Source: a virus (taxonomy: Duplodnaviria > Caudoviricetes). Taken from it: 29,380 nt of DNA. The stretch covers positions 1 through 29,380 of the IMG/VR virus record IMGVR_UViG_3300009095_001142; one strand, written 5' to 3'. Shown one piece after another: positions 2,462-29,260 of this stretch (position 1 is the stretch's first letter; every line of letters starts with the position of its first letter). The notes under the pieces are model-generated. The model had not been told where the DNA came from. It saw only the letters and a list, made by a program, of their open reading frames with translations, and searched no databases. The translations under genes were made by a program, and so were the position numbers.

Positions 2462-2548
2462 GTGACGGACACCCCGCCCGCCACACCGGCGCAGCCGAAG
2501 AAAGCCGCCGTCGCGGCCTGGATCGGGAGCGCGCTGGAGTACTACGAC
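2462..2548 (+). pseudogene. 5' fragment of an MHS-family MFS transporter (ShiA-like), interrupted by the prophage
   Basis: GGAG then GTG 2462: MTDTPPATPAQPKKAAVAAWIGSALEYYD. The family continuation FFIYG is replaced by NFLSRLP. Confidence 0.85.
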
Positions 2549-2556
2549 AACTTCCT
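2536..2556. other. Candidate att junction (core) of the prophage
   Basis: Transporter similarity ends at GAGTACTACGAC, about 45 bp from the integrase stop; imperfect inverted arms GGAGT and ACTTCC flank ACTACGACA. The partner att is not in the window. Confidence 0.65.
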
Positions 2557-2593
2557 CTCACGACTCCCCCGGCGGCTCTGACCTGCGGCGAAG

Positions 2594-3856
2594 CTACCTC
2601 GCCCGGGACACTGGGGCACCCTGGGGGCACACCAGCTCGCCGCCGAGCCTGGCGAGATCATGCCCCTCGGTGACCAGCCCGGCGAACGCGTCGTCGATCG
2701 CCTTGCGGGTCCGTTCCTCGCTGGACGGCATGAGGTGCGTGTAGGTCCGAAGCGTAAACCCCGGGTCGGCGTGACCGAGGCACTCGGAGAGCGCCTTGAT
2801 CGACTCGCCAGCGTCGAGAAGAACGCTCGCGTAGTAGTGTCGAAGCGCGTGCGCGCCGTTCTTCCTGTCACGGGGAATGCCGACGGCGTCGAGCGCGGGA
2901 TACCAGACGGCGGCGGTCACGGTGCGGCTGTGCAGAGCCCTCCCCGACTCGTTGGTCACCAGCAACGAGACGGTGTGATCGTCGCCGTCTGGCTCGGCCC
3001 ACGGGAGCGTCACTTCCCGCGCCGGGTACTTGGCGAGGTAGGCGGCGAGTTCGTCGCGCACCGAGGGCGCTAGGGGCACGTGTCGAGTTTTGCCACCCTT
3101 GGGAAGAGCGAACACCCGCCGGTTGCCGACGATCTTCACCTGTCGCCGGACGTGCACCCACCCGCGTAACCAGTCGATGTCGTCCGGGGAGAGCCCGTAC
3201 ACCTCGCCCGGCCTGAGCCCGAGCCCGGCGCCCACGACCACGAGCGGCCGGTACCGTTCGCCGATCTTGTCGCGCATCCCAGCGACCCACGCCGATGACC
3301 ACGGTGTGATCCGTTCGCGCTCCCCCTTCGGAGGCTTGACCGACTTCGAGAGCGCCGGGTTGCGGGGAATGAGTTCGTCGTCAACAGCAGCGGCGAGGAT
3401 GCTCGCGACGTGCGCGAACACGACGCGGGCCGTCGAGTCGGCGATCGTGAGTCCTTTGATCCACGCTTGCACGGTGGACGGCCGGATCTTCACGAGCGGT
3501 GTTTTCCCAAGCTTGGTTCCGGTGACGTACCGGCGGAGCCGCGCTTTGGTGTTTTCGATTGTGAGCGGGTCGGAGGTTCGGTGCGCAAGCCATTCTTCGG
3601 CGTATTTGTCGAAGGTGATTTGCCCGGCTTTCGGGTCGATATAGGACCCTTTGAGCATGTTGCCTTCGATTTCCTTACGCTTGTCGTCGGCGTCCTTCCA
3701 TTTCGTGTAGGACAGTTTGCGCGGCTGCTTGTCGGGGTCACGCCAGCGAAGGAGCCACCGCTTGCCTTTTCCGTAACGGTCGGTTTTGACCTTGCCGACG
3801 ACGTTGCCGTTTTCGTCCTTGACCTCTTTCCACCATCGGTCTTCAATGCTTGCCAT
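2594..3856 (-). CDS. int: Tyrosine recombinase/integrase
   Basis: Catalytic set GLRPGE (R), PKGGK (K), HALRH (HxxR), LGH, YTHL (Y); N-terminal arm-binding region RWLLRWRDPD. Confidence 0.96.
   Translation of the reverse strand: MASIEDRWWKEVKDENGNVVGKVKTDRYGKGKRWLLRWRDPDKQPRKLSYTKWKDADDKRKEIEGNMLKGSYIDPKAGQITFDKYAEEWLAHRTSDPLTIENTKARLRRYVTGTKLGKTPLVKIRPSTVQAWIKGLTIADSTARVVFAHVASILAAAVDDELIPRNPALSKSVKPPKGERERITPWSSAWVAGMRDKIGERYRPLVVVGAGLGLRPGEVYGLSPDDIDWLRGWVHVRRQVKIVGNRRVFALPKGGKTRHVPLAPSVRDELAAYLAKYPAREVTLPWAEPDGDDHTVSLLVTNESGRALHSRTVTAAVWYPALDAVGIPRDRKNGAHALRHYYASVLLDAGESIKALSECLGHADPGFTLRTYTHLMPSSEERTRKAIDDAFAGLVTEGHDLARLGGELVCPQGAPVSRAR
2603..2631. repeat. Three short tandem repeats, probable integrase arm-type sites
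   Basis: GGGACAC / GGGGCAC / GGGGCAC spaced 8 and 11 bp apart next to the att junction. Confidence 0.5.
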
Positions 3857-4262
3857 CCTGACCCTTTCCAGTTACGGCGTCGTGGAGTTCGGCGACTAGT
3901 TCGCGTATGCGGCGCGCCTGTTCGGAATCGCCGCCGAGGTAGTCGGCACCTTGCGCCCAGAGCCGGGCGACAGTCGTGGCGGCTGTCCACGTCGGCGTGA
4001 TGTTGATCTCTGTTTCGGTGTCGCCGAACAGCAGCCGGAGGGGGGTGACGTCGAGTGCGACGGCGAGACACATGAGGTCGTCGACGTCGACAGGTCGGAC
4101 GCCGTTCTCGATCTTTTGGATGACGGTTCCGGAGAGTGGGCGGCCGATCGCGTCGAGCTTGGCGGCGAGCTGGGCGCGGGAAAGCCCGGCGCGGCGGCGG
4201 AGGTCGGCGACGTTGTCGGCGACGCGGCGGCCGGTTGCCCCCGGAGCATGGCTCTTTGTCAT
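3843..4262 (-). CDS. XRE-family HTH immunity repressor
   Basis: VADNVADLRRRAGLSRAQLAAKL...IQKIENGVRPVDVDDL; upstream of int and divergent from xis. ATG 4262 chosen from promoter geometry. Confidence 0.88.
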   Translation of the reverse strand: MTKSHAPGATGRRVADNVADLRRRAGLSRAQLAAKLDAIGRPLSGTVIQKIENGVRPVDVDDLMCLAVALDVTPLRLLFGDTETEINITPTWTAATTVARLWAQGADYLGGDSEQARRIRELVAELHDAVTGKGQDGKH

Positions 4263-4263
4263 A

Positions 4264-4312
4264 ACGACCAAACTAGGGTCGTCTTGACCAATCGTCAAGC
4301 GGCGGGGAAGAT
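4264..4312. promoter_or_regulatory. Divergent repressor/xis promoters with two inverted repeats
   Basis: Minus strand TTGACG(4298-4293)-17-TAGTTT(4275-4270). Plus strand TTGACC(4284-4289)-17-GAAGAT. Inverted repeats ACGACC-N7-GGTCGT (4264-4282) and CTTGAC-N5-GTCAAG (4283-4299). Confidence 0.65.
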
Positions 4313-4352
4313 CGGTACTCGTCTGGCCCAGGTGGCGGACGAGGAGAACGGC

Positions 4353-4535
4353 ATGGAAGAGCTACTCACGCCCGACGAGCTGGCGGCTCGGTTGAAAGTG
4401 AAGGTGGCGACGCTGCGGGACTGGCGGTATCACCAGACCGGGCCGCCGTACGTTCACGTTGGTCGGCGCGTCCGGTACCGGCCGTCCGATGTGGACAAAT
4501 GGATCGAGGGAAGCTCTGTCGGCGCGCCGTCTTGA
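4353..4535 (+). CDS. xis: Excisionase / AlpA-like winged-HTH protein
   Basis: GAGGAG RBS; MEELLTPDELAARLKVKVATLRDWRYHQTGPPYVHVGRRVRYRPSDVDKWI. Confidence 0.9.
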   Translation: MEELLTPDELAARLKVKVATLRDWRYHQTGPPYVHVGRRVRYRPSDVDKWIEGSSVGAPS

Positions 4536-4546
4536 GCGCGAAGCAG

Positions 4547-4583
4547 AGGCGCCCCCGCCTCCACGGCGGAGACGGGGGCGCCT
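4547..4583. terminator. Hairpin between convergent xis and DUF397 genes
   Basis: AGGCGCCCCCGCCTCC-ACGGC-GGAGACGGGGGCGCCT, 16-bp stem with one mismatch. Confidence 0.75.
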
Positions 4584-4606
4584 GTAGTGGCTCCTGCGGT
4601 CGCGAG

Positions 4607-4810
4607 TTAGCCGAGCTCGCCGGACTTCACCCGCGCCAGGAACGCGGCGAACGTGTCGCCGTTGAACTCCAGAATCGGGCGGTGCGGGTCGCTGGCCTGC
4701 TTGGTGTCGCGGATGGCGCGGCCGGAGTCGGCGAAGCCGACCTCCACGCACTGGCCGTTGGGGCTGCTCCGAGTCGACTTCCGCCACCCGCTGTAGCTGA
4801 TCTCTGGCAT
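4607..4810 (-). CDS. DUF397 family protein
   Basis: WRKSTRS...QCVEVG...IRDTK...LEF...FL signature. Confidence 0.93.
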   Translation of the reverse strand: MPEISYSGWRKSTRSSPNGQCVEVGFADSGRAIRDTKQASDPHRPILEFNGDTFAAFLARVKSGELG

Positions 4811-4840
4811 GTCCGTGCCTACCTTCGTACTCTGCTCGCT

Positions 4841-5695
4841 TCACAGTGATGCAGCCGCGTCGGCGAGCATCGCCCGTGAGTCATCCTCACTGAGCGCCAC
4901 CGACGCGAGCTGGTCAAGTAGCACCGTATAGCTTTCGATGTCGCCTGGGTCCTCCTGGTACACAGCACCGCGGCGGTTCTCCACGTACGCGAACGCTGGG
5001 GCGTCTTCATCGGGAAACTGCATCATCACGAACGAACCGGACATTGCCGGATGCGCTCCGGCGGAGAACGGAACAATGCGAATTGAGATGTGGTCCCGCT
5101 TCGCTGATTCGGCGAGGACGCCGAGTTGTTCTCGCATGACTTCTGCGCCGCCCACAACGCGCCGAATTACCGCTTCGTTCAGATAGATGTGCATCTGCGG
5201 CGGTTGACCACCGTCGATCTGCATCTGTCGTTTCTTGCGCAACTCAACTCGGCGGGCGATCTGCTCGTCTGAATAACTCGGCTCGAGGGCACGAGTGATC
5301 GCGTCGACGTACGCGGGTGTTTGCAGCAAGCCAGGAACGTACTCGGATTGGTATTCCCACATGACCGAGGCGTCGCCCTCGAGCCCGACGAATTGCCGGA
5401 ACCAGTCGGGAACCGTTTCGCGGTACTGGGACCACCACCCGCGCTGATTCGCTTCGCGAGCAAGCCGAAGGAGTGTGTCTACCGTGCCCGCATCCGCGTC
5501 ATAGAGCTGGCACAGCAAGCGAACGCTTGGCCCCTTGATCGCCTGTTTCCCAAGCTCGATCTTACTAACGGTTGGCTCGCCAATCTCAAGCCATGTCGCA
5601 GCATCCTTGCGGGTCTTCCCCGCGTCAATGCGAAGCTGGCGGAGCATCGCGCCGAGTTGGCGTCGGCGGACGCTCGGACCAGGGCGTTTCGACAT
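4841..5695 (-). CDS. XRE-HTH / DUF5753 regulator (WhiJ/Scr1-like), partner of DUF397
   Basis: GGAGG RBS, ATG 5695; RRRQLGAMLRQLR...SKIELG, GWW, VPGLLQTPAY, LNEAVIRR, MREQL, YVE motifs. Confidence 0.93.
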   Translation of the reverse strand: MSKRPGPSVRRRQLGAMLRQLRIDAGKTRKDAATWLEIGEPTVSKIELGKQAIKGPSVRLLCQLYDADAGTVDTLLRLAREANQRGWWSQYRETVPDWFRQFVGLEGDASVMWEYQSEYVPGLLQTPAYVDAITRALEPSYSDEQIARRVELRKKRQMQIDGGQPPQMHIYLNEAVIRRVVGGAEVMREQLGVLAESAKRDHISIRIVPFSAGAHPAMSGSFVMMQFPDEDAPAFAYVENRRGAVYQEDPGDIESYTVLLDQLASVALSEDDSRAMLADAAASL

Positions 5696-5748
5696 CGAAC
5701 CTCCACTGACGGCTGATCGCGGCGGGCACAGTCTCGCACGCTGCGGCG

Positions 5749-5824
5749 CGGAGGAACGCGCTCCTCCGTTCGTGTGCACAACCGTATCCGTTCCTGCATG
5801 ACCGTTGCTAGAGGAACGTTCCTC
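5749..5824. promoter_or_regulatory. Two related palindromes in the XRE divergent region
   Basis: CGGAGGA-ACGCGC-TCCTCCG (5749-5768) and the perfect palindrome GAGGAACGTTCCTC (5811-5824). Confidence 0.55.
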
Positions 5825-5910
5825 GTGGCAGGGTGCCTCTCGCGTGAGTGATCGACGACCGTGCGTCGCCGACCTCCCGGTACCAGCTAGTGCACGAGGG
5901 AAGTGGTCCC

Positions 5911-6090
5911 ATGTCCGACCCCAGCAACGTGATCGCGTTCGTCGGGCTCGTCTTGGTCGGCGCGATCGTCTTCGGCTACGCCGTTGCCGACGCCGTTCGC
6001 GACTCGGATTGGTGGGTGATCGCCCGCGGGGTCGCCAGCGGCAAGCGCGCCCGGTTCGTGCGCTTCGTGCGAGGTGTCCGCCGTGGGTGA
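5911..6090 (+). CDS. Small single-pass membrane protein
   Basis: GAGGGAAG upstream; MSDPSNVIAFVGLVLVGAIVFGYAVA, basic C-terminus. Confidence 0.55.
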   Translation: MSDPSNVIAFVGLVLVGAIVFGYAVADAVRDSDWWVIARGVASGKRARFVRFVRGVRRG

Positions 6091-6097
6091 ATCCCTG

Positions 6098-7108
6098 ATG
6101 TGGTCAGCGATCGTCGCGGTCGCGTTGCTGGCGTGGGCGCCTGTCGCTCGTGACCTCCGTGAGGAGTTCAAGGCCCTTCGCTCCGAGTCCGCTCGTCGTG
6201 TGCAGCGCGCAGCGCGCCGCGACGTCGACACGATCCGGTTCTGTGTGGGAGGGAACCGCCCCGAGGTCGTGTCGCGGACCGGAGCCTCGGCCGGTCGTCA
6301 CCGCGCCCCCCCGTGTGGCGAACGGCCGAGCCATGCCACCCGCCGGGACGTATTGGCGAGTGACTGTCCCGGCGAGTGGTCCCGCCACGCGCCACGGGCG
6401 GCCGGTATGCGGGTAGTGCTTGCGCGCCGCCGAGACGGCGTATCAGCAGACGGCGGACCGCCGGAGGTGCACGCCTACCGGGTGCCCGATGACGATGGCT
6501 CTCCGGCCGTGTGGCGAGCGCCGTGCGGTGACGTGGTGAAGCCGGACGAAGTCGAGATCGTCGCCGCCTCGACGGGAAACCCGTGCCCGCGCTGCCTCAT
6601 CCTCGCGGCGCTCGCCAGCGACGCGCCGCCGGTCGGCCGCACCGAGCTCGAAGGCCCGCTCGCGCCGCAGCCTCCGGAAGTACTCCCGGCGGATGTCGTC
6701 ATCGAACCGGCCGTCGTCCCGCTGATGTACGCGCCGTCGTGGCGTGAGCAGGTTTTTCACTTCGCCGAGCCCGGCGCGGAGCGGCGCCCTTACCAGGGCG
6801 GAACGGTCGTCGTCGGGTTGTGCGGCGGGATCGGGTGGGGTCCGCACGAGCACGCGCCGAACAACTGGCCGATGTGCGCAGAGTGCATCCAGATCGCCGG
6901 GGGCGGACGTGAACCTCGTCCGTCCGCGCCCCGGAAACCAGCTCGCCTGGGTCGGCACGGTGCCCGTCGACCCGGACGCGCCGACGAAGCATCGCTACGC
7001 CGCGTGGTTCGACGAGCTTCCGACACAACCGCTGCCGCGTGTGGCCGAAGTGGACGAGCGCCCGCCCATTCGAGGGTTTGCCCCGGTCACCCGAGAACTG
7101 CTCGATGA
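6098..7108 (+). CDS. Hypothetical protein with N-terminal hydrophobic segment and two H...CG...CxxC zinc-finger-like motifs; true 3' end possibly near 6912
   Basis: VHAY...APCG...PCPRC and FHFA...GLCG...PMCAEC. The last ~65 codons are Arg-rich and overlap the next gene. Confidence 0.6.
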   Translation: MWSAIVAVALLAWAPVARDLREEFKALRSESARRVQRAARRDVDTIRFCVGGNRPEVVSRTGASAGRHRAPPCGERPSHATRRDVLASDCPGEWSRHAPRAAGMRVVLARRRDGVSADGGPPEVHAYRVPDDDGSPAVWRAPCGDVVKPDEVEIVAASTGNPCPRCLILAALASDAPPVGRTELEGPLAPQPPEVLPADVVIEPAVVPLMYAPSWREQVFHFAEPGAERRPYQGGTVVVGLCGGIGWGPHEHAPNNWPMCAECIQIAGGGREPRPSAPRKPARLGRHGARRPGRADEASLRRVVRRASDTTAAACGRSGRAPAHSRVCPGHPRTAR

Positions 7109-7136
7109 CGTCCTCGCCGGACTCGCTCGCCTTTAG
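6909..7136 (+). CDS. Hypothetical protein, 75 aa
   Basis: GTG 6909: MNLVRPRPGNQLAWVG...RELLDDVLAGLARL, protein-like composition. Confidence 0.6.
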   Translation: MNLVRPRPGNQLAWVGTVPVDPDAPTKHRYAAWFDELPTQPLPRVAEVDERPPIRGFAPVTRELLDDVLAGLARL

Positions 7137-7182
7137 CGACGCATCGTCACTCTGCGATGACAAGACGTCGCATGTGGAGGTA

Positions 7183-7210
7183 TCGACACCTGCGCATGCG
7201 TCCATACCCT
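7183..7210 (+). promoter_or_regulatory. Candidate promoter for the microprotein
   Basis: TCGACA-16-TACCCT. Confidence 0.35.
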
Positions 7211-7244
7211 GATCAACTCGACCACGGGAAGGGAGGTGTGAGCC

Positions 7245-7340
7245 ATGGCAAGCAACGGTGACCCGTGTCCGAACTGCAACGGCAGCGGCAAGCAGGGTAG
7301 CGAGGAGTGCAACACCTGCGGCGGCACCGGGCAGCTCTGA
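7245..7340 (+). CDS. 31-aa zinc-finger microprotein with two DnaJ-type CxxCxGxG motifs
   Basis: Not in the ORF track. Strong RBS GAAGGGAGGT; MASNGDPCPNCNGSGKQGSEECNTCGGTGQL; high GC3; followed by a hairpin. Confidence 0.82.
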   Translation: MASNGDPCPNCNGSGKQGSEECNTCGGTGQL

Positions 7341-7354
7341 CGGCCCGGGGCGCT

Positions 7355-7404
7355 CCGGTGTGGCTGGGCTGCGACACGGCCCCGAGGCAGCCCAGCCACG
7401 CCGG
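7355..7404 (+). terminator. 18-bp stem-loop between the microprotein and dnaE
   Basis: CCGGTGTGGCTGGGCTGC-N14-GCAGCCCAGCCACGCCGG with one G-U pair; immediately followed by an extended -10-like TGcTAGAGT (7408-7416). Confidence 0.7.
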
Positions 7405-7462
7405 GTGTGCTAGAGTTGCGGGGTCAGCTACCCCCCAGCGTGATGCTTCCGGAGTTGACGAC

Positions 7463-10400
7463 GTGTCCGATCGGTTCGTACACCTGCACGTGCACACCGA
7501 GTTCTCCATGCTCGACGGTGCTGCCAAGCACGACGCGCTGTTCGCCGAGGTCGCTCGGCTCGAACAGCCTGCGGTGGCGATGACCGACCACGGCAACATG
7601 TTCGGCGCGCACAGCTTCTACACGCACGCGCAGAAGTCCGGTATCAAACCGATCATCGGCATCGAAGCGTACGTCGCCCCGGAAAGCCGCTTCCACAAGA
7701 AGCCCGTGTTCTGGGGGAACCGGGCGGTGACCGGCAAAAAGGAAGTCGACGAGTACGGCGAGAGTGGCGACGTCTCCGGCGCGGGTGCGTATACCCACAT
7801 GACGATGATCGCTCTGAACTCGGCGGGGCTGCGTAACCTCTTCAAGCTCTCCTCGCTGGCATCCATGCAGGGTTTCTTCCGCAAGCCGCGCATGGACAAG
7901 GAACTCATCGCCGAGCATTCCGAAGGGATCATCGCGACGAGCGGTTGTCTGGCCGGCGAGGTGCTCACCCGTCTTCGACTCGGCCAGAAGAAAGAGGCAT
8001 TGCAGGCCGCCTCAGACTACAAGGACATCTTCGGGCCTGATCGCTTCTTCATCGAGGTCATGGACCACGGCATCGAGATGGAGCGCAACATTCGCAGCGA
8101 GCTGCTGGACATCGCCCGGCAACTCGATCTGCGCGTCGTGGCGACCAACGACAGTCACTACGTGACCGCCGACCAGGCCGAGCAACACGACGCGTTGCTG
8201 TGCCTGCAGACCCGTTCGATGCTTGCCGACACCGAAAGGTTCCGGTTCAACGGCGGCGGCTACCACATCAAGAGTTCTGAGGAGATGCGCGGGTACTGGG
8301 ATACCGAGGTTCCCGGTGCCGCAGACACCACGTTGTTGATCGCGGACATGGTCGAGGGTTATGAGGAGGCGTTCGCCCGTAAGAACCGGATGCCTCAAGC
8401 CAAGGTCGCCCCCGGCCGCACCGACGTCGAGGTTCTACGCGACGAGGTCGAGGAATTCATCCCGACCCGATTCCCCGACGGGATTCCGCAGGAGTACCGA
8501 GACCGGCTTGAGTGGGAACTGAAGGTCATCACGGAGAAGGGTTACAGCTCCTACTTTCTGGTTGTCGGCGACCTGGTCCGGTGGGCCAAGAACAACGGCA
8601 TCCGTGTCGGTCCGGGTCGTGGCTCGGCCGCGGGCGCGCTGCTGTCGTATGTGCTGCACATCATTGACATCGATCCACTGAAACACGGCCTGCTGTTCGA
8701 GCGGTTCCTGAACCCGGAGCGTGATTCCCCACCTGACATCGACATCGACTTCGACGAGCGTCAACGCGAGCGAGTCATCCAGTACGCGAAGGAAAAGTAC
8801 GGGGAAGAGTACTTCGCGAAGGTCATCACATACGGCACGATTAAGACCAAAGCAGCGTTCAAAGACGCAGCCCGGGTACACCTCGGCCAAGCCGGTTTCC
8901 AAGTCGCCGACCGGTTCTCCAAGGCACTCCCGCCCCCGGTGGGCGCGAAGGACATCCCGTTGTCGGGCATCGTCGACCCCGAGCACGAGCGCTACCCCGA
9001 GGCCGCCGAGGTCCGCTCGTTGATCGACAGTGATCCGCAGGTCAAAAAGATTTTCGACACGGCGCGAGGACTTGAGGGTCTTATCCGCAATGCGGGTGTT
9101 CACGCGTGTGCGCACATCATCTCGCGTGAACCGTTGTTGGACGTGCTCCCGCTGTGGAAGCGCGAGGATGGCGAGATCATCACTGGTTGGGACGGACCGC
9201 AGTGCGAGGCGGTCGGCCTGCTCAAGATCGATATCCTCGGGCTGGTCAACATGACCACGATCGATGACACCGTGCGGATGGTGAAGGCAAACCACGGAGT
9301 CGAGATCGAGCCGTTGGACATTCCCCTTGACGATCGAGCCACCTACGAGATGCTCGGGCGCGGCGAAAGCTTGGGCGTGTTCCAGCTCGAAGGCGGCGGC
9401 ATGCAAAGCCTGCTGAAGCGCATGGCGCCAACCCGGTTCGGTGACATCGTCGCCTGCGTGGCGCTGTACCGGCCCGGCCCGATGGACGTGAACGCGCACT
9501 TGGACTACGCCGACCGCAAGAACGGCAAGAAACCAGTTGAACCGATCCACCCCGAGCTCGACGAACCTCTGAAAGACATCCTTGGCGAGACCTACGGTCT
9601 GATCGTCTATCAGGAACAGATCATGGCGATCGCCCAGAAGGTCGCCGGATACACCCTGGGACAAGCCGACTTGCTGCGGCGGGCGATGGGCAAGAAGAAG
9701 AAGGAGGTGATGGACGCGGAGTTCGCCCGCTTCGAAGCAGGCATGAAGGAACGCGGCTACTCCAAGGACGCGATCGACAAGCTGTGGGCGACGGTGCTGC
9801 CCTTCGCCGGGTACGCGTTCAACAAGTCCCACGCTGCCGCGTATGGTCTGGTGACCTACTGGACTGCCTACCTGAAGGCGCACTACCCGGCCGAATACAT
9901 GGCCGCGCTGCTGACGGCGAACGCACACAACAAGGACAAGACAGCCGTCTACCTGTCCGAATGCCGACGGATGGGTATTCGAGTGTTGCCGCCGGACGTG
10001 AACGAATCCGTCGCTGAGCATGCCGCCGTGGACGGCCGCATTCGCTTCGGGCTTGGGGCGATCCGCAACGTCGGTTCGAACGTGGTCGACTCGATCGTCA
10101 AAACGCGGGAGACCAAGGGGCGCTACACCTCGTTCACCGATTTCTTGGATAAGGCCGAGATCGTCACGTGCAACAAGCGAGTCGTTGAGTCGCTAATCAA
10201 GGCCGGAGCGTTCGACTCGCTCGGACATACGCGTATGGCGCTGAACCAACAGCACGAAGCGGCCATCGACGCGGTGATCGGGTTCAAGCGGCACGAAGCA
10301 ATGGGTCAGTTCGACTTGTTCGGTGGCGCCGACGACACCGCCCGCAGCGATGACGCCTCACCACTTGCCCACTTCCAGTTCACCGAAGAAGAGTGGCCGC

Positions 10401-11050
10401 GTAAGCAGCTTCTCGCCTACGAGCGAGAAATGCTTGGTCTCTACGTCTCGGCGCACCCCTTGGACGGGGCCGAGCGGCTGTTGTCCCCGTACCAGGACAT
10501 CAGTATCGCCGAGCTCGTCGGCGGGGAACGCGAACCCAACGGCAACGGAAAAGACGAAGTCAAGATCGCCGGAATGATCTCGGCGGTTCAGCGGCGCATC
10601 AACAAAAACGGGCAGCCGTGGGCGATCGTCACATTGGAAGACTTTGACGCCAGTGTCGAGGTTCTGTTCTTCCCGAAAGCCTACGAGGTGTTCGCGGAGT
10701 ACCTCGCTGAGGACAATGCGCTCGCGGTGAAGGGTCGCGTGAACGAGCGAGAGGGCGAGATCAGCGTGTTCGCCTCGGATGCAGTCCCGGTCGATATCGC
10801 CGCAGCCGAGCACGCACCCGGCACCGAACCGCCGTTGGTGCTGCGCGCCGACGCGAAGAAACTCAACAAGGACACGATCGCCGAGCTTCGGAACACGCTC
10901 GGTGCCTACCAGGGGGCGACCCCGGTACACATCCACTTGGGGACCACGCGGCTCGCGTTGCCGTCGTGGCCGGTGAAGGTCTGTACTGAGTTGGTGTCCG
11001 AGCTGAAGTCGGTGCGGGGCATCACGATCGAACGTGCGGGGGCAGCATGA
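7463..11050 (+). CDS. dnaE: DNA polymerase III alpha subunit, DnaE1-type (1195 aa)
   Basis: GGAG then GTG 7463. PHP motifs HLHVH, LDG, TDHG, GIEAY, YTHM, SGC, NDSHY; GRGSAAG; PDIDIDF and KIDILGL catalytic aspartates; YAFNKSH; clamp motif QFDLF; OB-fold and C-terminal domain. Confidence 0.97.
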   Translation: MSDRFVHLHVHTEFSMLDGAAKHDALFAEVARLEQPAVAMTDHGNMFGAHSFYTHAQKSGIKPIIGIEAYVAPESRFHKKPVFWGNRAVTGKKEVDEYGESGDVSGAGAYTHMTMIALNSAGLRNLFKLSSLASMQGFFRKPRMDKELIAEHSEGIIATSGCLAGEVLTRLRLGQKKEALQAASDYKDIFGPDRFFIEVMDHGIEMERNIRSELLDIARQLDLRVVATNDSHYVTADQAEQHDALLCLQTRSMLADTERFRFNGGGYHIKSSEEMRGYWDTEVPGAADTTLLIADMVEGYEEAFARKNRMPQAKVAPGRTDVEVLRDEVEEFIPTRFPDGIPQEYRDRLEWELKVITEKGYSSYFLVVGDLVRWAKNNGIRVGPGRGSAAGALLSYVLHIIDIDPLKHGLLFERFLNPERDSPPDIDIDFDERQRERVIQYAKEKYGEEYFAKVITYGTIKTKAAFKDAARVHLGQAGFQVADRFSKALPPPVGAKDIPLSGIVDPEHERYPEAAEVRSLIDSDPQVKKIFDTARGLEGLIRNAGVHACAHIISREPLLDVLPLWKREDGEIITGWDGPQCEAVGLLKIDILGLVNMTTIDDTVRMVKANHGVEIEPLDIPLDDRATYEMLGRGESLGVFQLEGGGMQSLLKRMAPTRFGDIVACVALYRPGPMDVNAHLDYADRKNGKKPVEPIHPELDEPLKDILGETYGLIVYQEQIMAIAQKVAGYTLGQADLLRRAMGKKKKEVMDAEFARFEAGMKERGYSKDAIDKLWATVLPFAGYAFNKSHAAAYGLVTYWTAYLKAHYPAEYMAALLTANAHNKDKTAVYLSECRRMGIRVLPPDVNESVAEHAAVDGRIRFGLGAIRNVGSNVVDSIVKTRETKGRYTSFTDFLDKAEIVTCNKRVVESLIKAGAFDSLGHTRMALNQQHEAAIDAVIGFKRHEAMGQFDLFGGADDTARSDDASPLAHFQFTEEEWPRKQLLAYEREMLGLYVSAHPLDGAERLLSPYQDISIAELVGGEREPNGNGKDEVKIAGMISAVQRRINKNGQPWAIVTLEDFDASVEVLFFPKAYEVFAEYLAEDNALAVKGRVNEREGEISVFASDAVPVDIAAAEHAPGTEPPLVLRADAKKLNKDTIAELRNTLGAYQGATPVHIHLGTTRLALPSWPVKVCTELVSELKSVRGITIERAGAA

Positions 11051-11391
11051 CCAACGGCCCCGAGGTGGAGCTGACACCGCAGCAGCCGTGCGCACGCTGT
11101 GGGTCACCGATCCTGGCTGCGGTCACCGTTCCCGTGCCCGACACCAGGACCGCTGCCTCGCGCCGTGTCACGGCCACCGTGTGCCCCGTCTGCGATCGTC
11201 ACCACCCCGCGCCCGAGGTCCAAGGCGTGATCGCGTACTTCGCCCTTCACGAGCGCGTCACCGATGACGAGGTCGAGGGTGCAGCACAGGTGTTGTCGGC
11301 GTGGGCGCGCTACGTTGCGGCCCACCCGCCGATCTACACCTCCGACGATCTCGATGACGAGATCAGTGCTTGGGAACGCGGCGAGATGTGA
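11047..11391 (+). CDS. Four-Cys zinc-finger protein (resembles DUF6300 from memory)
   Basis: ATGA overlap with the dnaE stop; CARC...CPVCD; acidic C-terminus DDLDDEISAWERGEM. Confidence 0.8.
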   Translation: MTNGPEVELTPQQPCARCGSPILAAVTVPVPDTRTAASRRVTATVCPVCDRHHPAPEVQGVIAYFALHERVTDDEVEGAAQVLSAWARYVAAHPPIYTSDDLDDEISAWERGEM

Positions 11392-11406
11392 CGACACCTC
11401 CTGACA

Positions 11407-11470
11407 AGAATGGCCCCCGCGGAATCTCCCCGCGAAGCGAGCACAACACGGGAGATCCGGGGGGCGTTCT
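11407..11470. terminator. Imperfect hairpin where the dnaE arm and the lysis operon converge
   Basis: AGAATGGCCCCCGCGGAATCTCCC...GGGAGATCCGGGGGGCGTTCT. Confidence 0.55.
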
Positions 11471-11514
11471 CATGCCCGGGGCAGCCAGCCCTACCGGGCG
11501 GGCGCCGAGCGTCC

Positions 11515-11802
11515 TCACTCGGCGAGTCGGGTTGGTGGCGGGGCCGGGACAAGCGCCGTCCCGTCGGCGGTGCGCGGTCGTGCCGCCGGGGTCACCTTAC
11601 GGCGGGTCCACCACGTCAGGAGGACCGACACGAGCACGCCGAGCCCGGTCAAGCCGACCGTGAGCCCGTTGGCCTCCTGGTTGGTGATCCACCCGGCGCC
11701 GACACCGAGTGCCACCAGGACGCGAACGAGTTCGGCGAATCCGGCGGGCTCGGTGTGGATCTTCGATGGTTTCTGCGGGACCTGGTTGGTCATCGTGATC
11801 AC
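11515..11802 (-). CDS. Holin-like two-TM protein (alternative ATG at 11793)
   Basis: EPA...LVALGVGAGW...VLVSVLLTWWTRRKVTP; directly after the endolysin with GTGA overlap. Confidence 0.8.
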   Translation of the reverse strand: MITMTNQVPQKPSKIHTEPAGFAELVRVLVALGVGAGWITNQEANGLTVGLTGLGVLVSVLLTWWTRRKVTPAARPRTADGTALVPAPPPTRLAE

Positions 11803-12776
11803 TTCCAGACGGGGTCGATCTCGACAGCCATGCTCAGTGGGGCGTCGCTGCGGTAGGCGACCGCGATCTGAGTCGCGGCGCCGGGAACCTCGAAGGACTG
11901 CCGATCGCCCGCGACGAGCGTGTAGGCGCCCTGCAGCGGCATCCGTTTGCCCGGCTTGCCGTCTGGCGACCAGTCCTCGTCGGCGTAGACCCCGGCGATT
12001 TCGGTGTCCTCTCCGGCCGCCAGCGACACGAAGACCCTCCCCTGGTCGCCGGTCACGACGCCGTTGCGCGGCGGGACAAGACCGACGAAGGTGCGGACCC
12101 GGTCGGGGCTGGCCGGAAGCGTGTAACCGTAGGCGAGTCCACTTGGAACGTAGCGGCGCACGATGTCGCGGATCTCGGTTGCTATGGACATGTCGAGCTC
12201 ACTTTCCCCGCCTCCCCGGCGGATCAGGTTCGGGTCGTCGCGGAAGCTCCGCACGGTGTCTTGCATCCAGCGGGTGTCGATGCCGACCGGGTCAGGCTTG
12301 CGGCCGGGTGGGAGGCACACGTCTTTGTGCCCGGCGTAGCGGGACGCGTCGCGGCGCATGTAGTGCAGGGCGGCGGCCACGAGACGCGGGTAGGCATCGC
12401 GCTGTGCGGGCGTCCACCCGCCGTGTCCGGCTGATTCCGCTTCGATGCCGATGCTCTCGTCGTTGAGGTCGGTGAACCCGGCCCAGCGGGAGGCACCCGC
12501 GTGCCAAGCAACCCCGGCCGCCACGATGTAGATCGCGCCGGAACGGCCGAGCCCGTAGTTACACAACGGGCCGGGCAGATCCGCCCGGCCCTTGGTCACG
12601 ATGCCCTGTGACGGGTAATCCCCGGGCGCCTTGTCGGATGTGGCCGTGTGGTGGCCTACCACGACCTCCACGGCCCGGAAGCCGCCGTGCCCACGGGTGC
12701 GCCAACCGGGAAGCTCGACCACCGGGTATCCGGTCATGCGCGCCGCGTCGGCGAGCCACGGAATGTAGATCCCCAC
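11799..12776 (-). CDS. Endolysin, N-acetylmuramoyl-L-alanine amidase (Amidase_2)
   Basis: GTG 12776 after GAGGAGG; GWRTRG, HHTA, PGPLCN, AWHAG, SIGIEAE, GHKD...RKPDP. Confidence 0.93.
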   Translation of the reverse strand: MGIYIPWLADAARMTGYPVVELPGWRTRGHGGFRAVEVVVGHHTATSDKAPGDYPSQGIVTKGRADLPGPLCNYGLGRSGAIYIVAAGVAWHAGASRWAGFTDLNDESIGIEAESAGHGGWTPAQRDAYPRLVAAALHYMRRDASRYAGHKDVCLPPGRKPDPVGIDTRWMQDTVRSFRDDPNLIRRGGGESELDMSIATEIRDIVRRYVPSGLAYGYTLPASPDRVRTFVGLVPPRNGVVTGDQGRVFVSLAAGEDTEIAGVYADEDWSPDGKPGKRMPLQGAYTLVAGDRQSFEVPGAATQIAVAYRSDAPLSMAVEIDPVWK

Positions 12777-12777
12777 G

Positions 12778-13047
12778 TCACGCCTCCTCGTCGTAGGCGC
12801 CCACCTCGTCCGCGGTGTCCGGAGCGTGCGGGTCGGCGATCCGGGCGGCAAGGTTCTGCCGCGCCTGGTCGATGGTTTTCGGTCCGGCGCGCTCGGCGTC
12901 CCACCCGGCCGTCTCGTAGTCCTCGCGGGAGTACTGGGCGAGCGGGTCGAGGTCGGTGAGCGTGAGATTCGGGTGGCCGAGAAGTGGCGTTTCGTCCCAC
13001 GCCGACGGTGGCGCGTCGCGGAACACACTCGACTGCGGGTCGGTCAT
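12778..13047 (-). CDS. Acidic hypothetical protein
   Basis: 89 aa, abuts the endolysin start, GGAAGAG upstream. Confidence 0.7.
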   Translation of the reverse strand: MTDPQSSVFRDAPPSAWDETPLLGHPNLTLTDLDPLAQYSREDYETAGWDAERAGPKTIDQARQNLAARIADPHAPDTADEVGAYDEEA

Positions 13048-13143
13048 GACGGCATCTCTTCCCAGGTGGACAGTGCGTTCGTGCTGGTCCGCTTTTGCTG
13101 GCTGACTCCTGCGGGGCTTGCCCAGTCTGTGGTGGACGATCGG

Positions 13144-13407
13144 TTAGATCGCGTCTCGCCTGTCGCGGCGGGTGGTGAGCTCGTCCGGGATCTCCGGCGG
13201 GGTGAGCCCGTGGCGGGCGATGTCTTCGCGTAGCGCGTAGATGTGCCGGAGTGCGGATTCGAACTTGCGGCGTAGGTCCAGGACCTCGGATTCGAGGTCG
13301 ACCACGGATTCCGCCCGCTGGCGTTGGCGGTTGAGCAACAGACCGCCAATCGCGGTGGTCAGTCCGGTGAGTCCGGCGAACACGGCACCGACGAACGCAG
13401 CGTCCAT
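13144..13407 (-). CDS. Lysis-cassette membrane protein (one TM plus coiled coil)
   Basis: AAFVGAVFAGLTGLTTAIGGLLL followed by heptad-like VVDLESEVLDLRRKF; GGAGGG RBS. Confidence 0.8.
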   Translation of the reverse strand: MDAAFVGAVFAGLTGLTTAIGGLLLNRQRQRAESVVDLESEVLDLRRKFESALRHIYALREDIARHGLTPPEIPDELTTRRDRRDAI

Positions 13408-13410
13408 CGT

Positions 13411-13797
13411 TCAGCCCTCCGGGTAGGACGCTGACAGCCCGACCGCCTGCATGGCGAGCCCGGCCGCCAGGCACGCCGTCGCCCACCCGGCGCCGCCGAC
13501 CACGGCCGCGAACAGCAACGCGAACGCGTAGGCGGCGAACACTCCCGCGGCGACCAGCAGCGCCGCCGCCCGCCAGCGGCCGGCGACGAGCGCGGCCAGG
13601 AGCAGCACGGCGGCGCCGCCGAACATGCTCGGCCAGAACGGGCCGACGCTGTCGAGGTAGGCGACCACGTTGGCGGGGCGTCCCGGCGTCGGGTCGCGCA
13701 TCAGGTAGTACGGCGCCGCCCCGGCGAGGGACACCACGATCCCCAGCGACGAGGCGGCGCGGTACGGGACCGGGCGGGTGATGACGTCGGGGCTCAC
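13411..13797 (-). CDS. Multi-pass (about 4 TM) membrane protein, holin-like
   Basis: Four hydrophobic stretches; GTGA overlap with the upstream gene. Confidence 0.75.
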   Translation of the reverse strand: MSPDVITRPVPYRAASSLGIVVSLAGAAPYYLMRDPTPGRPANVVAYLDSVGPFWPSMFGGAAVLLLAALVAGRWRAAALLVAAGVFAAYAFALLFAAVVGGAGWATACLAAGLAMQAVGLSASYPEG

Positions 13798-14132
13798 TGG
13801 ACGCCGAGCTCCGGCGGGATCGCGGGACCGTAGTTCGGGTAGGCGACGAAGAGTTCGTTGATCTGCTCAACGGTGCGCATCTCCGGGACAACACCCATGT
13901 AGGTGATCGACGTCGAGTACCACTCGCCCTGGTTGACAGGGAACTCGTAGGTCCCGTACATGCTGGTCGCGCTGCGGACGGTGGCCGTACCGTCGCCGTT
14001 GTTCACAAAGTCGATGACGTTGCCGGAGTCGCGGCCGAGCTGGGCAAGGTGCTCGCGGATCGCGGCGGTGTTGGTGCCGTCCCAGATCCACACCTTGTGT
14101 GCCTGCGGCCGGGGAAGTACGTCGATGATCAC
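13794..14132 (-). CDS. Hypothetical protein downstream of the tail fibre gene
   Basis: GAAAGGA RBS then GTG 14132: MIIDVLPRPQAHKVWIWDGTN. Confidence 0.75.
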   Translation of the reverse strand: MIIDVLPRPQAHKVWIWDGTNTAAIREHLAQLGRDSGNVIDFVNNGDGTATVRSATSMYGTYEFPVNQGEWYSTSITYMGVVPEMRTVEQINELFVAYPNYGPAIPPELGVQ

Positions 14133-27783: not shown

Positions 27784-28146
27784 GCTCGCGCCTCCCTCGC
27801 GGTCACGGTGAGTGAAATCAGAGCGGTCCGCGGAACGATCTACGTTCCGGCCGGGCAATAGTGTTGAGCTGCGGTAATGGCAACCCGCGGCCAGCTGGCC
27901 GGCTCACCCGGTCGGCTTAGCGACCTGCGCTTACTGGTTGTGACATTCGGGGCAAAAGTGGCTTACGTGTCGCGGTTCGACGACGGCTCGTTAGCCAGCG
28001 CAACACGTGAATACCGACACATGTTTACGAGTAGACAGCCGCTGTGCGCTGTGCGTTTACTGGGAAACAGCGGTGAGCGAATGGCTCCCGATCATCCCGC
28101 CTCGCGCCCGACACGGCGCGGGGTCTTTCCCGAAGGGTTCACCGGC

Positions 28147-28831
28147 ATGAATGCCACCCACCCGCAGGCTGCCCAGCAGCCGTACACGACCCAACCGGCG
28201 CGCAACGGCTTCGGCATTACTGCGCTGGTCTTGGCGCTGGTCGGCGCCGTGTTCGGCATCGTCCCGCTCACCGGCTTTATCGCCTTGATCCTCGGGGGGG
28301 CTGGTCGTCGTGTTCGGTCTGCTCGGCATCGCCCGCACCCGGAAAGGCATCGCCACCAACCGCGTGATGTCGATCATCTCCACAGTGCTCGGCGTGGGCG
28401 TCGCAGCGCTCGGAATCTGGGGCATGTCGATCGTCTTCAGTGCCGTTGACCAGCTCGGTCGCGACCTCGAAGAACTCGGCGGAGACTTCGAGACCGCCGC
28501 ACCCGCCGTCCCCGGCGGCGTGACTGGCACCTCGGACACGAGCGCGCTGCACGATGTGACCGTCAAGAGCTGCACCACGGAGACCAACTACGGCACGACC
28601 AGTGCAAACGCCACGGTCACGATCACCAACAGCACCGACCGGCCCCGGTCGTACTGGGCGACGATCGCCGTCGACGACCCGGCCGGGAAGCGGCTCGGCG
28701 AAATCTTCGCCATCGCGAACGCGCTCCAGCCCGGCCAGACGACCGAACTGTCCGGAATGGAAGCCATGACCATGATCAGTGAACCTGCTGAGCAGGTCAC
28801 GTGCACCGTGGTCGCCGTCGACCGGTTCTAA
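28147..28831 (+). pseudogene. Moron membrane protein (DUF4190-like TM region plus secreted beta domain) frameshifted at a G7 run, 28294-28300
   Basis: ARNGFGITALVLALVGAVFGIVP...LILGG continues in another frame as LVVVFGLLGIARTRKGIATNR...CTVVAVDRF; removing one G gives a 227-aa ORF. Confidence 0.8.
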
Positions 28832-28856
28832 TAGCACCACGCGCACAACCCGCGAT

Positions 28857-28882
28857 GCCCGGTACCGGCGACGGTGCCGGGC
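28857..28882 (+). terminator. GNRA-capped hairpin after the moron gene
   Basis: GCCCGGTACCG-GCGA-CGGTGCCGGGC. Confidence 0.6.
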
Positions 28883-28909
28883 TCGCGGCATATGAGAGGA
28901 CACCTCCCC

Positions 28910-29152
28910 GTGTTCGAGACCGAAGCCGAAGTTTTCGCCTACCTCGACGAGCTCCGCCAGCGGCGAGCCGAGGCCCAACGTGTCGAAGCGGAGATCCTTG
29001 ATCAGATCAAGTCGGCCGTTCGTCAGGCAGGCGCGCTGCGGATCGGGGGCGAACCCATCAACCGATCGAAACTGATCGAACACTCCGGACTGTCCCGGCG
29101 CACGGCGTACAAGATCCTCGACGCGCTTCCCAGCGACCAGCCGGAGCCGTGA
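28910..29152 (+). CDS. Small coiled-coil plus HTH DNA-binding protein (alternative ATG 28892)
   Basis: AGAGGA RBS before GTG 28910; INRSKLIEHSGLSRRTAYKIL HTH. Confidence 0.75.
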   Translation: MFETEAEVFAYLDELRQRRAEAQRVEAEILDQIKSAVRQAGALRIGGEPINRSKLIEHSGLSRRTAYKILDALPSDQPEP

Positions 29153-29157
29153 GCCAC

Positions 29158-29250
29158 CTACGCCGCTCCGGCCAGATGCAACACCAACCACACCACGAGC
29201 ACCAAGACCACGAGAACGACCAGCCACCCGAGAACGGTCTGAGGATTCAC
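29158..29250 (-). CDS. 30-aa single-TM peptide
   Basis: Not in the ORF track: MNPQTVLGWLVVLVVLVLVVWLVLHLAGAA; AGGTGG upstream. Confidence 0.55.
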   Translation of the reverse strand: MNPQTVLGWLVVLVVLVLVVWLVLHLAGAA

Positions 29251-29260
29251 GGTCACCACC

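Follow-up and report, generated by a model that had tools for sequence, protein, structure and literature searches.

Our analysis concerns a gene for the DNA polymerase III alpha subunit (dnaE), and the small gene behind it, in a 29,380-nucleotide stretch of the Caudoviricetes record IMGVR_UViG_3300009095_001142 (positions 1 to 29,380, hereafter the window). The window represents the left part of a prophage in a filamentous soil bacterium, next to host genes and with its late genes on the opposite strand; Saccharopolyspora is the source of the closest named proteins. The dnaE gene is followed by a gene encoding a member of the Pfam family DUF6300 (Table 1), and we observed that this combination is a recurring mobile two-gene module, represented on actinomycete plasmids and in two phages. 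The polymerase gene is an intact DnaE1-type gene that is coupled to DUF6300, mobile, accessory, mosaic and under purifying selection.

Table 1. Features of the window (ORF, open reading frame; G001, a sister prophage; PIS 136, a Saccharomonospora phage).
Feature	Position	Strand	Remarks
dnaE, DnaE1-type Pol III alpha, 1195 aa	7463..11050	+	GTG start, GGAG upstream; mosaic: PHP/palm of mobile lineage, residues ~700-1100 Saccharopolyspora-core-like
DUF6300 (PF19817) Cys4 protein, 114 aa	11047..11391	+	overlaps dnaE stop (ATGA); conserved partner gene
-10-like hexamer TAGAGT	7411..7416	+	predicted own promoter of dnaE-DUF6300
Cargo slot	7137..11406 (approximate ends)	.	G001 has a graspetide cluster here
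Microprotein, 31 aa, two CxxCxGxG	7245..7340	+	passenger of swapped segment, outside conserved pair
Upstream hairpin	7350..7410	.	19-bp stem, no U tract; z -5.47, 0/200 shuffles as stable
Downstream hairpin	11407..11470	.	between DUF6300 and convergent lysis genes; z -2.7 (+), -3.25 (-)
Left prophage junction	2529..2558	.	contig depth falls at 2558; empty-site contigs run on into a gene read by eye as MFS transporter
Integrase	2594-3856		after left junction
XRE-DUF5753/DUF397 pair	4607-5695	-	common to G001; context, outside conserved pair
Divergent small ORFs beside XRE pair	5911-7136	+	common to G001; context (whole block 4607..7136)
Order from left			host genes, junction 2558, integrase, repressor, excisionase-like gene, XRE-DUF5753/DUF397 pair with divergent small ORFs, dnaE module, then lysis, tail and head genes (other strand)

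The dnaE product has the Pfam domains PHP, DNA_pol3_alpha, finger, HhH_6 and OB, and scores 1414 bits against the NCBIfam equivalog model for DnaE (PRK05673, cut-off 1002), compared with 598 bits against the error-prone DnaE2 model (PRK05672), which is below that model's cut-off of 939. All nine PHP ligands (H9, H11, D18, H43, E68, H112, C162, D230 and H232), the catalytic aspartates D425, D427 and D590 and the clamp motif QFDLF (QxxLF, residues 949-953) are present, followed by the OB domain and a chain that continues to residue 1195. The protein therefore shares domain order, PHP ligands, the three aspartates and QxxLF with actinobacterial DnaE1, as known from Mycobacterium tuberculosis (PDB 7PU7/5LEW; 1477 bits against 7PU7) and from the Saccharopolyspora core enzymes, to which it is 69-70% identical. 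Except for D23, E73, H107 and D226, the M. tuberculosis ligand numbers used in this comparison are presumed ones, in part counted from the alignment to 7PU7. Those four, and the ligand composition of five His, three Asp/Glu and one Cys, are given in PMC5636811. A preliminary description of the window, made from its letters, had reported a complete DnaE1-type gene with these motifs and not a DnaE2, which is borne out by the open frame from 7463 to 11050 and by the model scores; its statement that DnaE2 lacks a clamp motif was too strong, since about 85% of DnaE2 proteins have a non-canonical one (PMC3919608). Comparison with two public DNA runs, X1 over 7396-14000 and X8 over 7432-14000, revealed one letter difference and no indel in the gene.

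Unlike the core DnaE1, this enzyme is accessory, mobile, coupled to DUF6300, mosaic and remodelled in its palm, and the host keeps its own copy. Run X1 contains a separate contig with a core-type dnaE1 at a depth of 123.6, against 113 for the host flank and 21 for the element; this contig matches the window at 7475-7516 only and begins like Saccharopolyspora core DnaE1. The window enzyme is thus neither near-identical to the host polymerase nor the sole DnaE1 in the cell, two outcomes that the preliminary description had named as fatal to its view. Contigs from RNA runs include scattered pieces of dnaE, but of the lysin too, and hence provide no evidence of expression.

The partner protein matches DUF6300 with 61.3 bits (gathering threshold 27.8). 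Residues C15, C18, C46 and C49 are invariant or nearly so among 46 DUF6300 sequences, in which W86 and a C-terminal W-x-x-G-E are also kept, and the cysteine motif suggests that the protein binds zinc. Its predicted model (pLDDT 88.6) comprises a beta hairpin and three helices. Searches with this model gave no Foldseek match at E<=0.001, a best Z of 3.7 among 48,161 chains in the VIA fold search and, above the naming bar in the ESM Atlas, DUF6300 clusters only; these nulls do not establish that the fold is new, and they reveal no function. None of 60 profile matches is a DnaE-sized fusion.

When a Streptomyces DUF6300 sequence was used as the query, 33 records of a plasmid collection were matched and dnaE lies directly upstream in every one of them (18 judged from the annotation under the match, seven from fetched regions and eight from coordinates; seven records are near-identical plasmids). 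The hosts are Streptomyces, Actinacidiphila, Amycolatopsis and one Nonomuraea chromosome filed as a plasmid, and an Embleya plasmid encodes a weak DUF6300-like protein at the same position after dnaE. The plasmid neighbours of the pair are unrelated from locus to locus. PIS 136 is the only match to its own DUF6300 among 50,697 phage records, and it too carries the pair. A viral contig collection gave no matches to DUF6300 and four distant loci to DnaE (35-48% identity), and the sole match in a scan of a genome contig collection was spurious. For S. shandongensis and S. gloriosae the pair is no more than suggested, by contigs of matching length. The preliminary description had envisaged a prophage cassette of three genes, including a microprotein upstream of dnaE. 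Of its two flanking genes DUF6300 does co-occur with dnaE, but among the loci scanned the microprotein occurs in the window and PIS 136 and at none of the plasmid loci; the conserved unit is accordingly dnaE plus DUF6300, a mainly plasmid-borne module that is not specific to phages.

The PIS 136 DnaE (AAL66178), already listed among phage PolC-type polymerases in PMC1766352, is 71.6% identical to the window enzyme. DUF6300 follows directly, a double CxxCxGxG microprotein and an XRE/DUF397 pair are nearby and the gene adjoins an integrase. It differs from the window in that the microprotein is inverted and downstream and that residues 900-1100 are only 47-60% identical. Its gene PIS_114 (L005 12533-12889) is annotated as a shorter hypothetical protein, and a longer frame overlapping the end of dnaE encodes a full DUF6300.

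The ancestry of the polymerase is composite. S. gloriosae and S. shandongensis each encode one DnaE that is 88-89% identical to the window enzyme and another that is 69-70% identical. A DnaE phylogeny, suggested as a check in the preliminary description, was run with 103 sequences; in it the window enzyme joins the 88-89% identical copies and PIS 136 within the DnaE1 enzymes of Pseudonocardiaceae. We use "core" as a label from tree position and species names, not gene context. The DUF6300-linked enzymes of Streptomyces and Nonomuraea, 53-56% identical to that of the window, are placed apart. A single clade for seven DUF6300-linked DnaEs was rejected (p-AU 3.9e-5, 14 rows), and monophyly of the three Pseudonocardiaceae representatives was not (p 0.062). 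Along the chain, residues 301-700 of the window enzyme show 79-92% identity to PIS 136 versus 57-74% to the Saccharopolyspora core-type copies, and residues 901-1100 show 47-60% versus 77-80%. A triplet test for mosaic structure gave a chi2 of 86.5 (0/2000 permutations) and a second triplet 68.5, though the break fell elsewhere (626 versus 872), compared with 10.0 (74/2000) for a control triplet without the window; trees of the separate regions disagree. From the switch in identity, the triplet test and the discordant trees we conclude that recombination joined a catalytic half of the mobile lineage to a host-type half bearing the clamp motif and OB domain. The data do not fix the direction and date of the exchange, and the dnaE1-DUF6300 link may be ancestral and lost from core loci. 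In the palm tree the Saccharopolyspora core-type enzymes P0094, P0107 and kin, which lack the groove arginine, group with mobile-type copies and not with the Amycolatopsis core (support 0.71), hinting that exchange may also have run from element to chromosome.

The catalytic half has a distinct palm. A set of 19 related enzymes shares changes at positions that are nearly fixed in 28 comparison enzymes, among them E432, K453, Y457, H551, G578, I589, I591 and Q648. E432 corresponds to M. tuberculosis D428, one half of a fidelity pair (PMC12641269), but the residues that partner it (R433, T598 and D602) are unchanged, as are Y110 and F262; V595 replaces the groove arginine, which the host core also lacks. 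Against PIS 136, residues 301-660 are under purifying selection (dN 0.10, dS 1.10, dN/dS ~0.09).

The module occupies a position that a close relative fills otherwise. At the DNA level G001 is 88% identical to the window in the integrase region and 78-83% identical between the lysis and portal genes, and it has the XRE operon in common; the interval between this operon and the holin contains an ORF resembling a precursor, an ATP-grasp ligase gene and one for a PIMT, with no polymerase. Because G001 holds this graspetide cluster, a type of ribosomally synthesised and post-translationally modified peptide (RiPP) cluster, in the same slot, we regard the dnaE module as swappable cargo with the distribution expected of a prophage moron, being present in one phage and absent from the same site in a close relative. 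Possibly the XRE operon serves these phages generally as a docking site for cargo. The other arm of G001 (29 ORFs scanned) encodes a terminase, RusA, SSB, a replication initiator, RecT, an exonuclease and repressors, and none of the 29 matched a polymerase; the preliminary description's notion of a stand-alone polymerase, which had allowed for a replication cluster in the unseen half, agrees with this. In G001 the RiPP cluster (L032 4983-7447), with an MvdD-type ligase, directly continues the operon divergent from XRE/DUF397, and in PIS 136 remnants of a PIMT gene adjoin the XRE/DUF397 pair.

Our preferred reading, held tentatively and at slightly less than an even chance, is that the module supplies a stand-in replicase which, partnered by DUF6300, would work within the replisome of the host whenever the latter's own DnaE1 is blocked or in short supply. 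The two genes would be transcribed in the lysogen from their own predicted promoter, and the host-like C-terminal half (HhH, clamp motif and OB) would let the module DnaE load on the host clamp. The distinct palm would keep it working under conditions in which the host enzyme fails, such as exposure to a DnaE inhibitor, and DUF6300 would be co-translated with dnaE and bind or regulate the polymerase. The preliminary description had likewise proposed a polymerase that plugs into the host replisome; the stand-alone character is retained from that proposal and the zinc microprotein is not, and the host-like C-terminal half is what a plug-in enzyme would need.

At five of the extra dnaE loci, including one that is DUF6300-linked as well, a LysR gene diverges from dnaE (LysRs 36-87% alike), which fits an inducible protection gene; such LysR-linked extra dnaE1 copies possibly represent a ligand-inducible second replicase. 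These loci (L007 4753-9597, L138 1706-6603, L048 3862-8597, L047 ~3940-8537 and L058 2880-7546) are from Streptomyces, Embleya, Nonomuraea and Rhodococcus, and an ACAACC...GGTTGT-like box was seen by eye in four.

Several observations weigh against a stand-in replicase. The palm signature is absent from the DUF6300-linked enzymes of Streptomyces and Nonomuraea, the promoter matches in Streptomyces are not independent, and host matching is shown only within Pseudonocardiaceae, because the trees are without Streptomyces or Nonomuraea core DnaE1. Of the 60 top-ranking plasmid dnaE records no more than 32 have a match to DUF6300, and a search downstream of 12 DUF-less dnaE loci found none; many extra dnaE copies can thus do without the partner. 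There is no antibiotic cluster adjoining dnaE, the neighbours being phage and XRE-operon genes, and the three nargenicin-contact residues Q641, R670 and H790 are kept. These contact residues are kept in insensitive enzymes too (PMC11762266), and sensitivity has been tied to DNA affinity instead (PMC8922275), so the check is not decisive. A precedent in favour of a protective role is NarR/NgnU, an extra dnaE beside the nargenicin cluster proposed as a self-resistance gene (PMC8922275), and likewise a second actinomycete dnaE thought to protect replication from a DnaE inhibitor. Compared by description only, the window differs in having no adjoining biosynthetic cluster and in being mobile cargo with DUF6300.

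An unlikely alternative is a toxin-immunity pair, in which DUF6300 would inhibit or displace the host DnaE1 and the linked DnaE would be its resistant replacement, making the cell dependent on the element and perhaps blocking rival elements. Dependence does run one way, as DUF6300 is always found with dnaE (33/33) and dnaE occurs without DUF6300 in 28/60 records, or with a truncated copy at some loci, but the same asymmetry is expected if DUF6300 is useless without its polymerase. The antidote-first gene order with coupled translation is as a toxin-immunity pair would have it, the distinct PHP/palm joined to a host-like C-terminal half would fit escape from an inhibitor, and the slot otherwise carries conflict-type cargo. 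However, PADLOC returned no match for DUF6300 or DnaE, an enzyme of 1195 aa would be an unusual antitoxin, and the partial presence of the prophage in the host population, as judged from contig depth, is uninformative about addiction. Its fullest version, equally unlikely, is that DUF6300 would be a new kind of replisome toxin by which elements of filamentous actinomycetes seize chromosome replication, repeatedly re-fitting the immune DnaE with a host clamp/OB half by recombination while keeping the resistant catalytic half.

It is quite improbable that the module encodes a lower-fidelity or lesion-tolerant polymerase giving more mutation or damage bypass, a DnaE1-derived counterpart of the plasmid mutagenesis cassettes with DUF6300 as regulator. 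The clade-specific changes at the near-invariant palm positions, together with V595 in the groove, are what such an enzyme might show, but all nine PHP ligands, Y110, F262 and the groove residues R433, T598 and D602 are kept, the change from D to E is conservative and the host core likewise lacks the groove arginine. The 330 nt upstream of dnaE in the window contain no PafBC motif and, within two mismatches, no SOS box (CGAAC-N4-GTTCG); imuA and imuB are absent from the 39 ORFs scanned in the window, as the preliminary description had said of the adjacent genes, and the DnaE2 model stays below its cut-off. The ImuA'-ImuB-DnaE2 mutasome is comparable in that its C-family polymerase is likewise accessory, comes with partner genes and is often plasmid-borne (PMC3919608); the window enzyme is unlike it in being of DnaE1 type, with an intact PHP domain, a canonical clamp motif and an unrelated partner.

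We give similarly low credence to an ordinary replication gene of the element, of the lytic-cycle phage or large-plasmid type, or to a captured host gene without a special role. Near-full-length DnaE relatives do exist in 389 phage records, PIS 136 has dnaB and an epsilon-like gene ~20 kb from dnaE, one plasmid dnaE copy lies near a RepL2 gene, and ~13 kb of the window's own element beyond 29262 (an end resembling an insertion sequence, IS) is outside the material covered. Against this stand the lack of a polymerase in G001, the placement of dnaE, which is flanked by the XRE operon and the lysis genes, converges on the late genes and has its own predicted promoter, and the unrelated plasmid neighbours. 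Streptomyces phages such as Maneekul (Arquatrovirinae) also encode a full-length DnaE, 49% identical to that of the window, but there it belongs to a series of genes for nucleotide metabolism and replication (dNMP kinase, ThyX and ribonucleotide reductase) and lacks DUF6300. Neutral capture is at odds with purifying selection and with a partner kept across three orders.

The remaining features lie around the pair. The microprotein upstream of dnaE and the four-cysteine gene over its stop had been described correctly, but the former was rejected as part of the module, as its motif, with a spacing of six residues, is generic and recurs at 77 viral loci, of which one has a DnaE (a distant one) within 5 kb and not one has XRE, DUF397 or DUF6300. 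On the microprotein the anti-TRAP (RtpA) profile scored 24.4 (cut-off 65) and the DnaJ zinc-finger models were far below cut-off, a likeness of motif only. Both hairpins that the preliminary description placed around dnaE exist. The upstream one is likely a terminator or insulator between microprotein and dnaE; the downstream one belongs to the phage as a terminator-like element, not to the cassette, because it is common to G001, which has no module. The hexamer may act as the promoter of dnaE-DUF6300: a similar one occurs 44-69 nt before the first motif in 11/12 DUF6300-linked loci versus 1/6 others, with a shuffle frequency of 0.06-0.26 each.

Contigs of two public DNA runs have depths of 113 and 78 over the host flank but 21-26 over the prophage, and empty-site contigs diverge from the window at 2558, which indicates a prophage present in only part of the host population. 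Judged by eye, the gene into whose 5' end the prophage is inserted (2413-2558) encodes an MHS-type MFS transporter, and empty sites coexist in the public runs. A defective prophage, considered because no terminase follows the portal, was dropped: a contig of run X8, still at the depth of the element, carries on for ~13 kb after the IS-like end. The ~1.5 kb at element depth directly upstream of the portal (27790-29260), where G001 has its terminase, encodes a membrane or lipoprotein-like ORF (with a frameshift at 28294 that is absent in three runs) and a small helix-turn-helix-like ORF. The IS-like end at 29260 is high-copy, and two runs have no IS at this site. Relative to two DNA runs the window has single-base indels at 6306 and 6898, and assembly errors have probably put its ORFs in the XRE-divergent operon into the wrong frame. 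Rfam and tRNA scans of the window gave no matches.

Genomes with two DnaE1 copies are rare (6/945 in two such table rows of PMC3919608), and for Mycobacterium smegmatis the suggestion has been made that variant DnaE1 copies and the native enzyme compete for the replisome (PMC12641269). Our literature search, whose coverage excluded subscription papers and supplements, found no account of the dnaE-DUF6300 pair, and no paper in it used the term "DUF6300". Extra DnaE1 copies, hitherto recorded as rare oddities, turn up here repeatedly as a cargo module of plasmids and phages of actinomycetes, which provides a first context for DUF6300, a partner protein with no structural match in the searches run. 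As a natural chimera, the polymerase offers a direct test of which parts of DnaE must match the host replisome. If the module DnaE does escape DnaE inhibitors, it would constitute a mobile route of protection against this class of antibiotics in the habitat of their producers, and if DUF6300 inhibits DnaE1, it would be a naturally occurring protein that inhibits a valued drug target.

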